Positions 22,035-30,283 of a stretch of DNA of 30,382 nt are shown here, piece after piece; the first letter of the stretch is position 1; each line of letters opens with the position of its first letter. A program made the position numbers and the translations under genes. The stretch is taken from IMG/VR virus record IMGVR_UViG_3300044681_000392, positions 1 to 30,382 of that record; one strand, given 5' to 3'. The notes beneath the pieces are model-generated. The model saw only the letters and a list, made by a program, of their open reading frames with translations. It searched no databases and was not told the origin of the DNA. This DNA is from a virus (Duplodnaviria; Caudoviricetes).

Positions 22035-23969
22035 TTATGCGGAAATGTCTACAATCTCGCAATTTCCGTCTGAAGTACATGCTAGGCTTTGTGTTCCAGT
22101 AGTTCCATCTTCTGTTTCGTAAAAAGATAAATCTTCCCAGCGAATTGATGACGGCATTTTAGCAAGAAGTTCTAGGTATTCTGTTTCTGTGACCTCTTGA
22201 TAAGGAGCCTGCTTATACGAATGATCTGAATGCGGTAGGAATGAAATCCCTGATACCTCATCAAAATGCTTATATACCCAAGCACCTACTTCCATCCATT
22301 CATCTTCTTTAACAGATACAGTAATAGATGGTTTATGCTCACACCATTCACGCTGATACACAAGCCATGTATTTAGGTGATCAATAGCTGTAAGATCATC
22401 ACGAACAATTGCCCCTTCTGGTGCTTTTACTGGAAATGAGAATACATAAGTTTGATCTGGTTTCATAAAATCATCTTCGCATGGAATTCCAACTTCTTTT
22501 AAGAAAGTTGAAAGTGGATCTTTTTTGTCCCCACGAACTGTGCGAATATAGTATGGGGAATGCCAAGGGTGCATACCTGAAGATACCCCTGTTAGCTGTG
22601 AAACAGTTCCCGATGGCTTGACGCAAGTAATTGCAGCAGACTCATTGATTCCAATCTTTGCTGCCTCTTCTTTATTTGTTTCTCTGGCGTAAGCCCTCAT
22701 GTCGTTTAAGAATTGACCTAGGCCTTCTAGATCCTGCTTACCAGACATGAACTCATGTCCAAACTGTCCAGTTATAGAAACGCCAAGCAGTCTTTCTTCT
22801 TCAGTATTATCTTTCCAGATTTTACGAAGATACTTGAAGTCGGTAAGTGTTGATTGCCAAGTTCCAAGTATTGTTGCTAGGGCTATTTTCCTCTGTATGT
22901 CTTTTCTAGAGTCGTGCTCTCTGATGACAACTTCAGAGAGATTGCAAAATTGATACGGGCGAAGAATGATTTCAGAACAAGGATTGGTACCATAATGAAT
23001 ATCAGGGTCCCTTCTACCAAACTTAGCGGCCTGTGATTGTGCAGCCTTGACATTGTATATACCTCTTTCTCCAGACTTTGAATCATATAGATTTTTCCAC
23101 TCAGCAATAAACTGCTCCATCTCTGGTTTACGTGAATATGCTACTGAATTGTTTGAAAGTGCACGTTGAGAATTATTCTCCCACCAATTTCCTGACTTAG
23201 CCTGTGCCATCTCTATATCATTAATATTAGAAAGTGAAATCATAGCGGAACGACGAACTCCACCAACTACCACAACTTCGCCAATTTTACACATAATGTC
23301 ATGAGCCTCAATAGGCTTTAACTGACGGCCTGCTGCTGATTTAAACTTTGCAATTGTAAAATCAAAAAGATTAATTAATGGCTGGGGTCCAGATGAACGG
23401 CCCCCCATTGTTTTAAGACGTGCGCCTGCTGGGCGAAGTTTTGATACATCTATTGCTGGGACTTGTCCAGCCCAAAGCATTGCAAGAAGTTCACGATAAG
23501 CCTTTGCCCAACCAGACTTTGAATCTTCAACTACGATAACAGTTGTAGATTTTTCAAATGACTCTGGGACGGCGGGAAGTTTATTAACATACTTATACTC
23601 TACAGAGAAACCTACTCCAGTTCCACACATAAGAATATACATTGTTTCATCAAATGAACGTGGGTTATCTACTGGAACAAATGAGCAGTTATATCCTGCA
23701 ACATGATCTCTGTCAAGAGCAGCACCTGCAGTCATTACTGCTCGCATCGAAGGCATTACATTTCTATTATAAACAGCATTTTTAAGTTCTTCTATAAGTT
23801 CTGTAGATGGCTCATAGTTATATCTTGTAAATAAATGATCTAGCATAAATGCAAAATATCTATCTACTGTTTCACCCCATGTTTCACGACGGTTTTCATC
23901 AGATAACCATCTTGCATATCTTGATAAAGCAATAAAATTTTCATAGGGGTTTTCAATAACTTTCGCCAT
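22035..23969 (-). CDS. nrdJ: Class II (adenosylcobalamin-dependent) ribonucleotide reductase
   Basis: Active-site motif TNPCSEI, VVVGGVRRSA, CVKPSGTVSQL and C-terminal redox cysteines ACTSDGNCE. No beta-subunit gene is adjacent. Confidence 0.92.
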   Translation of the reverse strand: MAKVIENPYENFIALSRYARWLSDENRRETWGETVDRYFAFMLDHLFTRYNYEPSTELIEELKNAVYNRNVMPSMRAVMTAGAALDRDHVAGYNCSFVPVDNPRSFDETMYILMCGTGVGFSVEYKYVNKLPAVPESFEKSTTVIVVEDSKSGWAKAYRELLAMLWAGQVPAIDVSKLRPAGARLKTMGGRSSGPQPLINLFDFTIAKFKSAAGRQLKPIEAHDIMCKIGEVVVVGGVRRSAMISLSNINDIEMAQAKSGNWWENNSQRALSNNSVAYSRKPEMEQFIAEWKNLYDSKSGERGIYNVKAAQSQAAKFGRRDPDIHYGTNPCSEIILRPYQFCNLSEVVIREHDSRKDIQRKIALATILGTWQSTLTDFKYLRKIWKDNTEEERLLGVSITGQFGHEFMSGKQDLEGLGQFLNDMRAYARETNKEEAAKIGINESAAITCVKPSGTVSQLTGVSSGMHPWHSPYYIRTVRGDKKDPLSTFLKEVGIPCEDDFMKPDQTYVFSFPVKAPEGAIVRDDLTAIDHLNTWLVYQREWCEHKPSITVSVKEDEWMEVGAWVYKHFDEVSGISFLPHSDHSYKQAPYQEVTETEYLELLAKMPSSIRWEDLSFYETEDGTTGTQSLACTSDGNCEIVDISA

Positions 23970-24026
23970 TTTTGAGTAAAGCTCCTTCTCCGCCTTGCGG
24001 TTAATATAAAAAATGAATAGGTTCTT

Positions 24027-24035
24027 ATTCTACCA
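24027..24035 (-). promoter_or_regulatory. Extended -10 promoter for nrdJ
   Basis: TGG-TAGAAT about 58 nt upstream of the ATG. The leader carries RBS GAAGGAG. Confidence 0.55.
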
Positions 24036-24061
24036 AACTTTATTTAGCGTGGGAAGAGGTT

Positions 24062-25139: not shown

Positions 25140-25712
25140 ATGGAGAATATCAAACAACGTTTGAGCGAAGTTGCTCATAGTTGGACATCTATAGGAATGA
25201 TAACATTATTTCTATTTGGAGTCCAGCCCCAAGCAATAGAAACTCAAGCAAATGCTGTGCAGCCAGAAATAGCTGTAGAGCAAGTAGTACTACCGAAACA
25301 ACTGAAAAGAGAAACGCTGGAAAAATTCAGCAACACTGTATACAAGCCTTCGGAGACACTTACAGATAAAGAACTTAAAGAGTTATTAAAAGCTGTAGGT
25401 TTTGAAGGAAAAGCCCTTAAAACGGCTTGGGCTGTTGCTAAGGCAGAGTCTAATGGTAGACCGATGGCTTACAACGGTAACAGGAATACTGGAGACAGTT
25501 CCTACGGAATTTTTCAGATTAATATGTTGGGAAAACTCGGCATTGATCGAAAAGAGAAATTCGAACTGCGATCAAATATACTTTTATTTGATCCTGTTAT
25601 AAACGCAGAGATAACGTATTACATGACTCAAGGCGGAAATGACTGGAGCTCATGGACATCCATTAGGAGTGGAGCCACCCAAAGATGGTTGGCAAAGTTC
25701 CCTGAACAGTAA
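25140..25712 (+). CDS. Lysozyme-like lytic transglycosylase (SLT/Rpf-like fold) with an N-terminal hydrophobic anchor
   Basis: Catalytic AES, SYGIFQIN and DWSSW motifs. N-terminal WTSIGMITLFLFGV. RBS AGGAGG. Confidence 0.85.
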   Translation: MENIKQRLSEVAHSWTSIGMITLFLFGVQPQAIETQANAVQPEIAVEQVVLPKQLKRETLEKFSNTVYKPSETLTDKELKELLKAVGFEGKALKTAWAVAKAESNGRPMAYNGNRNTGDSSYGIFQINMLGKLGIDRKEKFELRSNILLFDPVINAEITYYMTQGGNDWSSWTSIRSGATQRWLAKFPEQ

Positions 25713-25727
25713 GAATGGAGAAAGTCA

Positions 25728-25940
25728 TTGAAGATACAAATAGTATCTAAATATTTGGCTTTAGCAGAAGAGGGCCTTGTTCCTGGAATATCATGTCCAG
25801 TAGATCAAGGCCTTCTTATGCCTAATTTAGATTTAAATGATACAATTTACCTATATTGCTTATCTTGCAATTATAAAAACAGTATGGGGTTAGAAGTTTA
25901 TGACAGAATCGAAAGAGCCGTTAAAGCAAATACAAACTGA
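25728..25940 (+). CDS. Small zinc-ribbon-like protein
   Basis: CPVD...CLSC. TTG start with GGAG upstream. Confidence 0.65.
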   Translation: MKIQIVSKYLALAEEGLVPGISCPVDQGLLMPNLDLNDTIYLYCLSCNYKNSMGLEVYDRIERAVKANTN

Positions 25941-26016
25941 CGGTGGAATAATAATAGAAACAGACCAAATGGGTCGAGAGAAATTCTGGGAAGACTTAGG
26001 AAGACCTAATGACTGA
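25900..26016 (+). CDS. Small hypothetical protein (38 aa)
   Basis: MTESKEPLKQIQTDGGIIIETDQMGREKFWEDLGRPND. It bridges the gap and overlaps both neighbours. Below the ORF-track cutoff. Confidence 0.55.
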   Translation: MTESKEPLKQIQTDGGIIIETDQMGREKFWEDLGRPND

Positions 26017-26221
26017 AAAAGAGAAATCGCAAAATTTAGAAGATAACCTAGATATGGTTAATTATATTATGCTACACCGCATTTATGATATATTAACACT
26101 TATTGCAAATAAATTGGTGGGACCAGAAGATACATCCAAGCTTATAGAATATCACGATCAAGGATTTTTATTAGGTCCCACCCCATCATATACGCCAAAC
26201 GAAACTGATGAAAATAACTGA
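26009..26221 (+). CDS. Hypothetical protein
   Basis: 70 aa with AGGA upstream, in the operon. Confidence 0.7.
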   Translation: MTEKEKSQNLEDNLDMVNYIMLHRIYDILTLIANKLVGPEDTSKLIEYHDQGFLLGPTPSYTPNETDENN

Positions 26222-26375
26222 AGACGATTATATAACATATTATGAGAATATTTTAGATGTATGCAAGTCTTGTGACTTGTATTTTGAAGATGAAGATTCT
26301 TGTCTTATAAATAATAAATTGGTTTTTGAAATTGTAAAATCAGAGTCTCCAATTTGCCCTATAGGTAATTGGTAG
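26208..26375 (+). CDS. Small four-cysteine protein (CxxC...C...CPxGxW)
   Basis: 55 aa, MKITEDD...CKSCDLY..SCLI..ICPIGNW. Below the ORF-track cutoff. Confidence 0.65.
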   Translation: MKITEDDYITYYENILDVCKSCDLYFEDEDSCLINNKLVFEIVKSESPICPIGNW

Positions 26376-26377
26376 TG

Positions 26378-26406
26378 TTGACTTTAGTATAAATAAATAT
26401 TATACT
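26378..26406 (+). promoter_or_regulatory. Near-consensus sigma70 promoter driving a small RNA
   Basis: TTGACT (26378-83), 17 nt, TATACT (26401-06). Confidence 0.8.
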
Positions 26407-26412
26407 AATATG

Positions 26413-26500
26413 GTATGGGTTGCAGCATTCCACTTTGCTCCCCGTACATGTGCTTCGGCGCAGCAAGTCCCAATCGGATCCGCCTCTGATTGGGATTTTT
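26413..26500 (+). ncRNA. Unclassified ~88-nt structured small RNA
   Basis: It has its own promoter and no credible CDS, with three hairpins including a C(UUCG)G loop and a terminal 11-bp stem followed by U5. Confidence 0.7.
26468..26500 (+). terminator. Intrinsic terminator of the small RNA
   Basis: TCCCAATCGGA-tccgcc-TCTGATTGGGA-TTTTT. Confidence 0.8.
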
Positions 26501-26504
26501 GCTA

Positions 26505-26533
26505 TTGTTTTCTTTATATAAATATTGTATAAT
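26505..26533 (+). promoter_or_regulatory. Promoter, leaderless transcript
   Basis: TTGTTT, 17 nt, TATAAT, then 6 nt to the ATG at 26540. Confidence 0.6.
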
Positions 26534-26539
26534 TATTGA

Positions 26540-27250
26540 ATGTCAAATAACAAAGAATACTACGACGTTTTGATAACTACTCCTGGTAGAAACATGGACA
26601 GGAGATATGTTTTGTCTTTGCTGGCAACAATAAAAGAACTTGATAGTCTAGGAATTACTTGGTCCTATAGCAATCAATCAAGCTCTGATGTTTCAATAGC
26701 TAGAGAAGCAACTATTCTAGGATCTTGTAGGATTATGGGCTGGGCTTCAAATTTTTCTGCCCCCATAAATGGAAACATAGATTATAAGAAAATTTTTTTA
26801 ATAGACTCAGACATATTTTGGAAGCCAGAAGATTTTTTAAAATTATATTATTCTGAAGAAGATGCCATATCTGGTGTGTACCTGCAAGATGATCAGGAAA
26901 CAACAACATTACTAACGCCTTTAAAAGAAAATGATGGTGCTTTTTCAATGTTTACTGAAAGAATGAGAACTCTTTTAAGATCAGAGATTGTTAATAAATC
27001 AGCAAAATTTGAAATATCTGGATGCGGATTAGGATTTGTATGTTTAAAAAAGGGAATATTTGAATCTGTAGAAAGACCATGGTTTCAGCATTTGACAACT
27101 TCTGGAGAGGTTATCAACGGCGAGAAAATTGTAGAGTTAGTATCTGAAGATATATCTTTTATTAAAAGATGTCGTGAAAAAGGATTTAAGTTTTATGCTG
27201 ATCCAACAGTTCTTGTAGGACATGTTAAAAATTGTGTTATTGACTGGTAA
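26540..27250 (+). CDS. GT2-like (GT-A) glycosyltransferase
   Basis: DSD motif (IFLIDSDIFW), GCGLGFVCLK, SEDISF and DPTVLVGHVK. Confidence 0.8.
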   Translation: MSNNKEYYDVLITTPGRNMDRRYVLSLLATIKELDSLGITWSYSNQSSSDVSIAREATILGSCRIMGWASNFSAPINGNIDYKKIFLIDSDIFWKPEDFLKLYYSEEDAISGVYLQDDQETTTLLTPLKENDGAFSMFTERMRTLLRSEIVNKSAKFEISGCGLGFVCLKKGIFESVERPWFQHLTTSGEVINGEKIVELVSEDISFIKRCREKGFKFYADPTVLVGHVKNCVIDW

Positions 27251-27260
27251 AAGTATTCAG

Positions 27261-27332
27261 AGCCCAATATCAGATTTGAACTGATGACCCTTCGCTTACA
27301 AGGCGAATGCTCTGCCACTGAGCTAATCGGGC
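27261..27332 (-). tRNA. tRNA-Thr(UGU)
   Basis: GCCCGAT/ATTGGGC acceptor stem, anticodon arm TTCGC-CTTGTAA-GCGAA and T loop TTCAAAT. No encoded CCA. Confidence 0.93.
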
Positions 27333-27336
27333 TGAG

Positions 27337-27407
27337 AGCGGATGATGAGAATCGAACTCACCCCTTCTGCTTGGAAGGCAGAGGCACTACCAATATGCAA
27401 CATCCGC
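27337..27407 (-). tRNA. tRNA-Gly(UCC)
   Basis: GCGGATG/CATCCGC acceptor stem, TCTGC-CTTCCAA-GCAGA, TTCGATT and U discriminator. Confidence 0.93.
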
Positions 27408-27411
27408 ATTG

Positions 27412-27484
27412 CTGGACCACCAGGGCTCGAACCTGGGACCTAGAAGTTAACAGCTTCCCGCTCTGCCGTCTGAGCTATGGTCCA
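27412..27484 (-). tRNA. tRNA-Asn(GUU)
   Basis: TGGACCA/TGGTCCA acceptor stem, GGAAG-CTGTTAA-CTTCT, TTCGAGC and G discriminator. Confidence 0.93.
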
Positions 27485-27556
27485 ATAATTCTAGTATACT
27501 AAATTTAGTGCGAAATTAAAAGTGCGCCCGAAAATTGCGGCGGCGGTAGAAGAGAA

Positions 27557-29636: not shown

Positions 29637-29678
29637 TGAGCCTAGCAAATAAACCGAAAGGGTGAGCCTAGCAAATAA
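29637..29678 (+). repeat. 16-bp direct repeat TGAGCCTAGCAAATAA x2 in the 5' leader
   Basis: Exact copies at 29637-52 and 29663-78. Confidence 0.9.
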
Positions 29679-30161: not shown

Positions 30162-30283
30162 ATAGATTATTAACTACCGCCGTCCAGCTTTTCCTAGTGG
30201 TATCCGCTGCCTATATGCTCCGCCTAATATGGGCAGACCTAAAACAAGATGTGACAGACACCATAAAAGATTTGCGAAAATAA
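30158..30283 (+). CDS. 41-aa membrane peptide
   Basis: MNRLLTTAVQLFLVVSAAYMLRLIWADLKQ... with an ATGA overlap. Confidence 0.6.
   Translation: MNRLLTTAVQLFLVVSAAYMLRLIWADLKQDVTDTIKDLRK

Follow-up and report, generated by a model that had tools for sequence, protein, structure and literature searches.

The window analysed here, a 30,382-nt stretch of DNA, is a 30-kb fragment of a tailed phage in which portal and tail genes are present, and one short GC-rich segment within it raises the question of whether it encodes a small RNA and, if so, what that RNA would act upon. An earlier note on this DNA had proposed a stand-alone small RNA gene, with its own promoter, three hairpins and a terminator, whose product would be a regulatory or decoy RNA with exposed loops. 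Complete relatives of the phage span 104–113 kb, and the freshwater (lake) origin of the group is taken from sequencing-run labels. Among annotated phages, the best matches of the window's ribonucleotide reductase are Streptomyces phages of the Stanwilliamsviridae (65–66%), and one complete relative, G002, encodes WhiB, the gene for which serves as a marker of actinobacterial hosts for phages (PMC10914622, available part). Because of these reductase matches and the WhiB of G002, an actinobacterial host is likely for the group, as judged from gene content. Past the reductase comes a glycosyltransferase; the + strand then carries an SLT_3 lysozyme-like gene and three small ORFs, after which the element in question follows.

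Results

A predicted small RNA gene with three hairpins

The promoter-like site, the three hairpins and the run of five U were all present in the window sequence where the earlier note had placed them (Table 1). The promoter-like site (TTGACT at 26378–26383, a 17-nt spacer and TATACT at 26401–26406) ends six bases 5' of G26413, the predicted +1; the window scan returned 40 such sites against 31.5 expected, a single site being not above chance. In P1, the lower stem pairs GTATGGG (26413–26419) with CCCGTAC (26441–26447) and the upper stem pairs AGCA (26424–26427) with TGCT (26436–26439) around an 8-nt loop, with a pair of G26422 and C26440 beyond those described earlier. P3 consists of an 11-bp stem (26468–26478 with 26485–26495), the loop TCCGCC (26479–26484) and T5 (26496–26500), and its UCCGCC loop is fully unpaired in the predicted fold. 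The 91 nt from 26413 to 26503 fold at −41.5 kcal/mol on the + strand (z = −5.1; 0 of 200 shuffles equally stable), as compared to z = −2.3 for the opposite strand, and the GC content of the element is 53% against 14–15% in the immediate flanks, as had been remarked.

Table 1. Features of the RNA locus and of its proposed target in the window
Feature	Position	Strand	Basis or remark
Sigma-70-type promoter-like site, TTGACT-17-TATACT	26378..26406	+	Promoter scan, 10/12 consensus matches; conserved 5' of homologs
Predicted three-hairpin small RNA of about 88 nt, single copy in each genome	26413..26500	+	Fold, homologs
P1: 7-bp lower and 4-bp upper stems, separated by a UU pyrimidine bulge, a G-C pair and a single bulged base; loop UUCCACUU	26413..26447	+	
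P2: 5-bp hairpin, TGTGC-TTCG-GCGCA	26449..26462	+	
P3: intrinsic-terminator-like hairpin and U5	26468..26500	+	99.4% of cells paired; 8/11 pairs change on both sides
Proposed seed, invariant A-UCCGCC-U (six-base loop plus its closing pair)	26478..26485	+	Homolog loci
Class II (B12-dependent) ribonucleotide reductase gene, proposed target	22035..23969	-	phrog_367; PF21995 on G002 ortholog
GGCGGA, proposed target site, directly 5' of Shine-Dalgarno AAGGAG in reductase leader	23989..23994	-	
Upstream block: SLT_3 lysozyme-like protein and three small ORFs	25140..26375	+	Precedes the RNA gene in all classes
Downstream variable gene, glycosyltransferase-like, own -10 box, not part of the RNA	26528..27250	+	phrog_1574

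A 40-codon ORF (26410–26532) overlaps the element; it starts 5' of the predicted +1 and homologs do not preserve its frame (spacing modulo 3 of 21, 29 and 16 among 66), and a coding reading was dropped, in agreement with the earlier view that no credible CDS is present. Identity as a tRNA or tmRNA was likewise rejected, with no ARAGORN or Rfam call on the element; the calls in the window are three tRNAs at 27260–27484 (ARAGORN/Rfam), which are also its sole Rfam matches at gathering score. For the element itself, no Rfam match was obtained at gathering score and only chance microRNA hairpins at E up to 10, which places the RNA family outside Rfam. The next gene does have a promoter element of its own, as claimed, with TATAAT at 26528–26533 six bases 5' of the ATG at 26540, although its -35 is weak (TTGTTT) and the site is absent from the promoter-scan output; this gene is probably leaderless. 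At the sequence level, the element reads as an RNA gene with its own promoter and an intrinsic terminator and without a conserved ORF.

Covariation and conserved parts of the RNA

Homologs were compared in an alignment (A1) of 66 sequences drawn from 101 distinct cores, with near-identical sequences and one truncated row removed. Standard pairs are formed by 96.9% of its 1833 cells, and 21 of 28 pairs change on both sides, while none of 500 shuffles reached the observed pairing and slid controls gave 33–47%, a result favoured both by taking the structure from the window row and by the relatedness of the sequences. The covariation among related phage contigs that the earlier note had looked to is thus strong. 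G-U cells outnumber A-C cells by 181 to 17 in the family alignment, and this excess marks the + strand as the RNA strand. A promoter-like site matching at least 9 of 12 consensus positions precedes 111 of 191 distinct homologs, as compared to 3 of 105 control windows. Of 91 distinct downstream contexts, 60 begin with an ORF on the same strand, 18 with an ORF and 12 with a tRNA on the opposite strand, and 1 has no feature; given the conserved promoter-like site and these varied downstream features, a stand-alone gene fits better than a leader. Covariation thereby supports a conserved, structured RNA gene absent from Rfam, and the stand-alone gene of the earlier note is upheld by pairing, strand bias, promoter conservation and changing neighbors, its transcript being predicted.

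Parts of the RNA vary considerably. All five pairs of P2 change on both sides and its loop is UUCG or GNRA-type, and P2 is missing in three loci (L503, L505 and L506), suggesting a role as spacer or stabilizer. The bulge pattern of P1 is common, not universal (159/191 distinct instances), and loop 1 reads AUCCCA in 120/191, the loop being dispensable across the family. A scan for other stems, which required the UCCGCC loop, returned 103 loci, 54 of them with a true hairpin: 20 loci with a short P1 carrying the bulge (class B), 27 with a plain P1 lacking both bulge and loop 1 (class C), 5 in which the terminator hairpin stands alone behind a promoter-like site with P1 and P2 gone (class D), and 2 further true hairpins outside these classes. 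The anchor gene lies upstream in 18/20, 22/27 and 5/5 of classes B, C and D, respectively, the remainder being short loci. In contrast to these variable parts, A-UCCGCC-U is invariant in alignment A1 and in all 193 protein-anchored loci that carry the element. Because the protein-anchored set, for which the loop was not required, also contains only A-UCCGCC-U, the terminator loop is what selection has retained. The regulatory or decoy role proposed in the earlier note can be narrowed to this single loop, which that note had not singled out and which alone is invariant and has a conserved complement in phage leaders (see below); the loop of hairpin 1 is dispensable.

Distribution among phages and bacterial genomes

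By protein queries alone, 216 loci of relatives were fetched, many contigs occurring twice. A terminator hairpin followed the anchor gene in 190 of these, 19 ended within 600 nt, 2 were without the anchor, and 5 failed the test. Three of the failing loci carry the element with one stem mismatch, and the other two had 623 and 636 nt left, occupied by an inserted gene, the element lying elsewhere up to 1963 nt from the anchor. The element is accordingly present in 193 of 195 informative, partly redundant loci. A pattern-scan estimate for the commonest class alone is about 310 stored stretches in IMG/VR, where an exact 21-mer of the window's hairpin 1 had 0 matches because the window's loop 1 departs from consensus. 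Against annotated phages, blastn gave 24 weak matches, all of them short of 80% query coverage, and a search of parts of the Streptomyces relatives did not reveal the RNA.

Among bacterial genomes, a GTDB pattern scan gave 33 matches, of which 2 are the element. The two contigs concerned, L288 and L305, are assigned to a Saccharibacteria MAG and a Bacteroidia MAG, respectively; they carry the RNA and the reductase context of this phage and are probably phage contigs misbinned within MAGs. In unrelated bacteria, two terminator-like hairpins (L283 and L304) share the loop but are without P1 or P2 and were dropped as homologs. An RNA model applied to 151 sampled genomes of the actinobacterial class of G011, under strict filters and with no positive control in the set, found 0, and no host homolog of the RNA emerged from the GTDB matches and sampled genomes searched.

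A complement of the terminator loop in phage leaders

The exact complement of the terminator loop is GGCGGA, of which the window contains 37, one of them in a leader (23989–23994), that of the reductase. Across 186 loci, GGCGGA occurs in 88 of 90 distinct 40-nt reductase leaders, at positions −27 to −11, with the next best hexamer at 74/90. Of the two leaders without it, one reflects a mis-called start, and in the other (L130) GGCGGA is truly lost, the RNA loop and the leader hairpin being retained. In the window and seven long relatives, GGCGGA precedes the reductase in 8/8; it also precedes a 134-aa gene in 4/5 genomes, a 72-138-aa gene in 4/5 and a DnaB-like helicase in 3/6. In these last three genes, it sits at the Shine-Dalgarno position, and in the reductase of G001 it lies between the Shine-Dalgarno and the AUG. 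Seven reductases with 40–50 extra N-terminal residues (L481, L482, L486, L496, L499, L501 and L502) still have GGCGGA 5' of the new start.

Across 604 clustered genes, with starts from a simple caller and some of them misplaced, hexamer counts at −30 to −1 were 25 for GGCGGA, 11 for GGTGGA and 38 for GGAGGA, counts that are not independent since the genomes are related. GGCGGA was the commonest hexamer with five or six G+C in this interval, and at −60 to −31 it was outside the six commonest permutations. Kept in at least three genomes, GGCGGA was found in 4 of 118 clusters as compared to 0 for GGTGGA. Conserved hexamers are not unusual in leaders, since 15 of 76 gene clusters had one that every genome shared, for the most part a promoter or Shine-Dalgarno word. 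Sequence bias could raise the count of GGCGGA because it is Shine-Dalgarno-like and the commonest Gly-Gly codon pair (134/543). A target for loop 1 was sought among the same 604 genes, with GTGGGA before one gene and GTGGGAT before none. In Streptomyces relatives, GGCGGA occurred at 0/158 and 0/42 ORF starts and in 0/10 reductase leaders, a comparison that amounts to one evolutionary contrast only, and no hairpin complementary to the phage's own reductase leader was detected in 74 of 131 kb of Genie2 or 26 kb of Birchlyn. In protein-anchored loci, both loop and site are fixed and no compensatory change was seen, the loop-requiring DNA pattern scans being blind to variants.

In the window's reductase leader, the site lies opposite CCGC (24000–23997) as the 3' arm of a small hairpin, and folding predictions have it paired in 87 of 88 reductase leaders. 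The GCGG in the window leader is 2–3% unpaired; the hairpin is predicted at −4.8 kcal/mol versus −10.2 kcal/mol for the bare loop-site duplex. The 5' arm of the leader hairpin shifts register among relatives while the 3' arm is fixed, and the hairpin leaves the Shine-Dalgarno uncovered. Farther upstream on the - strand (24027–24055) lies a reductase promoter-like site with a nonconsensus -35, TTCCCA (CTTCCC or CTTCCT in most relatives), which may mark a class of phage-activated promoters.

Discussion

Proposed mode of action and rival explanations

We interpret the element as a base-pairing repressor of the phage's own mRNAs that would act in the manner of the 6C (B11) RNA, via its terminator loop and GGCGGA, an interpretation to which we give an even chance of being correct. 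A host-type promoter would yield a separate RNA of about 88 nt that folds into a stable form. Its exposed UCCGCC loop would then pair with GGCGGA beside or within ribosome-binding sites, presumably in the absence of a chaperone on the model of the actinobacterial 6C RNA, and translation of the reductase, the helicase and the two small genes of the phage would be lowered. Repression is favored over activation on account of where the site falls, which is over the Shine-Dalgarno position in three genes and, in one reductase lineage, in the gap from the Shine-Dalgarno to the AUG. Accumulation of the stable RNA could serve as a slow brake on DNA-synthesis genes, for late switch-off or for dormancy in starved hosts, and the P1 bulge likely offers a protein-binding site that the RNA can do without. 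Weighing against this reading, a six-base loop affording six or seven pairs is a short seed, loop and site show no compensatory change, L130 has lost the site from its reductase leader yet retains the loop, and the site is predicted to be folded away in reductase leaders. A bolder form, which we put forward tentatively and regard as somewhat doubtful, is a private translation-control circuit: DNA-synthesis and early genes would be marked by the variant ribosome-binding word GGCGGA, and the terminator loop of one RNA would read only GGCGGA and switch off the class, leaving host and late mRNAs untouched, with the P1 bulge tunable by a phage peptide.

It is unlikely that the RNA base-pairs mainly with host mRNAs, GGCGGA in phage leaders being merely a Shine-Dalgarno variant. 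A fixed host target would account for the unchanging loop, and 6C RNA acts on host genes via G-rich leaders (PMC6486639, available part), but the status of GGCGGA as the best-conserved hexamer of reductase leaders, separate from the true Shine-Dalgarno and at shifting positions, would be left unexplained. Similarly improbable is a protein-binding or decoy RNA, in which a protein of the phage or the host would recognize loop and bulge, the leader complement being coincidental. In its favor, the loop and its closing pair are both invariant, and the P1 bulge has the layout of the arginine-sandwich motifs of HIV TAR and 7SK, in which, in the part of PMC6189040 at hand, a pyrimidine bulge precedes G-C and A-U pairs. 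That likeness is one of secondary structure only, and the bulge is lost in some phage lineages, being missing from the 27 class C and 5 class D loci; the exact six-base complement conserved in leaders also argues against coincidence.

We consider it improbable, to a slightly greater degree, that pairing is real but activating or stabilizing, with the loop opening the leader hairpin or protecting the 5' region of the mRNA. In most reductase leaders, a hairpin just 5' of the Shine-Dalgarno has the site as its 3' arm, and this arm alone keeps its register, both of which suit such opening; the hairpin, however, does not cover the Shine-Dalgarno, and binding should block ribosomes in G001 and at the three genes with the site at the Shine-Dalgarno position. 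Poorer still are the prospects of a terminator only, perhaps for both strands, or of a cis-acting leader of the next gene. P3 is indeed terminator-like, class D is a single hairpin, and converging genes or tRNAs follow in 30 of the 91 distinct contexts. Against this, terminator loops have no need of a fixed sequence, the element's own promoter-like site is conserved, the G-U bias marks the + strand, and the genes that follow are of various kinds and lie on either strand (same strand in 60 contexts, opposite in 30, no gene in 1). A self-cleaving ribozyme of the HDV-like type, to which one might be led by the pairing potential of UUGC (26420–26423) with GCAA (26463–26466), the nearby tRNAs and a nesting of P1 and inner helix that we take to resemble such ribozymes, is scarcely credible, as there is no Rfam ribozyme match, the P1 interior is lost in classes C and D, and the nested double pseudoknot, rejected as a candidate, is unconserved (pairing in 75% of cells, a level reached by 148 of 500 shuffles).

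Comparison with known RNAs

Membership in the 6C family, RF01066 in Rfam, was rejected: the element had no match to the Rfam 6C model, whether at gathering score or with E relaxed to 10, and the loops are UUCCACUU and UCCGCC, the longest C run in consensus loops being three, not six. If base-pairing repression holds, the phage RNA would thus share the mode of 6C/B11 yet not be a 6C member, and it is uncatalogued in Rfam. RsaE and LhrC of Firmicutes use unpaired C-rich motifs, also in terminator loops, as anti-Shine-Dalgarno seeds. Unlike these chromosomal RNAs, to which it has no sequence relation, the phage RNA has a seed, UCCGCC, that matches the variant GGCGGA rather than the usual GGAGG.

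The 6C RNA represses panD and dnaB by C-rich loops without chaperones, and its stem-loops carry six conserved cytosines (PMC6486639, available part). The likeness lies in a small structured RNA of the actinobacterial world with C-rich loops, the G-rich ribosome-binding targets of 6C including the dnaB helicase in the same portion of that source. In contrast to 6C, the phage RNA is phage-encoded, has one invariant loop, located on the terminator, and has the phage's own mRNAs as proposed targets; furthermore, 6C targets are mostly single-stranded (PMC6486639, as far as available), in contrast to the predicted pairing of its proposed site. A survey of the same source collection with the same class of method, PMC10690425, lists 8,495 candidate structured RNAs from IMG/VR phages according to its accessible part, and the present RNA may be among these unnamed candidates. 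Searches by motif and contig name in four table and document supplements of PMC10690425 gave no match, and no description of this RNA was found in the literature searched.

The RNA constitutes a well-supported family that Rfam lacks and that nearly all members of a widespread group of freshwater phages of 105–113 kb possess. Most candidates of this sort lack what is available here, a defined seed together with a defined, conserved target site, and the proposed pairing is thereby directly testable by one reporter experiment. If the proposal is true, the phage times its own nucleotide and DNA-synthesis genes by a trans-acting RNA and a dedicated Shine-Dalgarno variant.

Other elements in the window and in Streptomyces phages

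Three further elements of the window were observed. Past the tRNA cluster, a GC-rich element (27518–27556; AAAAGTGCG..CGAAAA.TGCGGCGG) borders the variable gene block and is represented by 38 distinct variants in the fetched loci; it may be a DNA site or a leader. A direct repeat, GAGCCTAGCAAATAA, occurs at 29638–29652 and 29664–29678 in a long untranslated stretch before small + strand genes and is possibly an operator or early-promoter element. On the + strand at 30207–30236, a second hairpin has a 10-nt loop containing UCCGCC (z = −2.0); it was not seen in the loci of four relatives.

Eight loci of Streptomyces phages related to Genie2 (L462–L469) exhibit a promoter-like site, a hairpin and a terminator-like hairpin approximately 650–800 nt 5' of a lysozyme-like gene on the same strand. 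The element had no Rfam match and was not detected in L470 and L471. In 8/8 loci, the terminator-like loop is complementary to the upstream region of its own genome over 8–11 bases, as compared to 3–7 bases for those of the others. The element is a candidate covarying RNA with a loop-loop pseudoknot in culturable phages, distinct from the RNA of the window.
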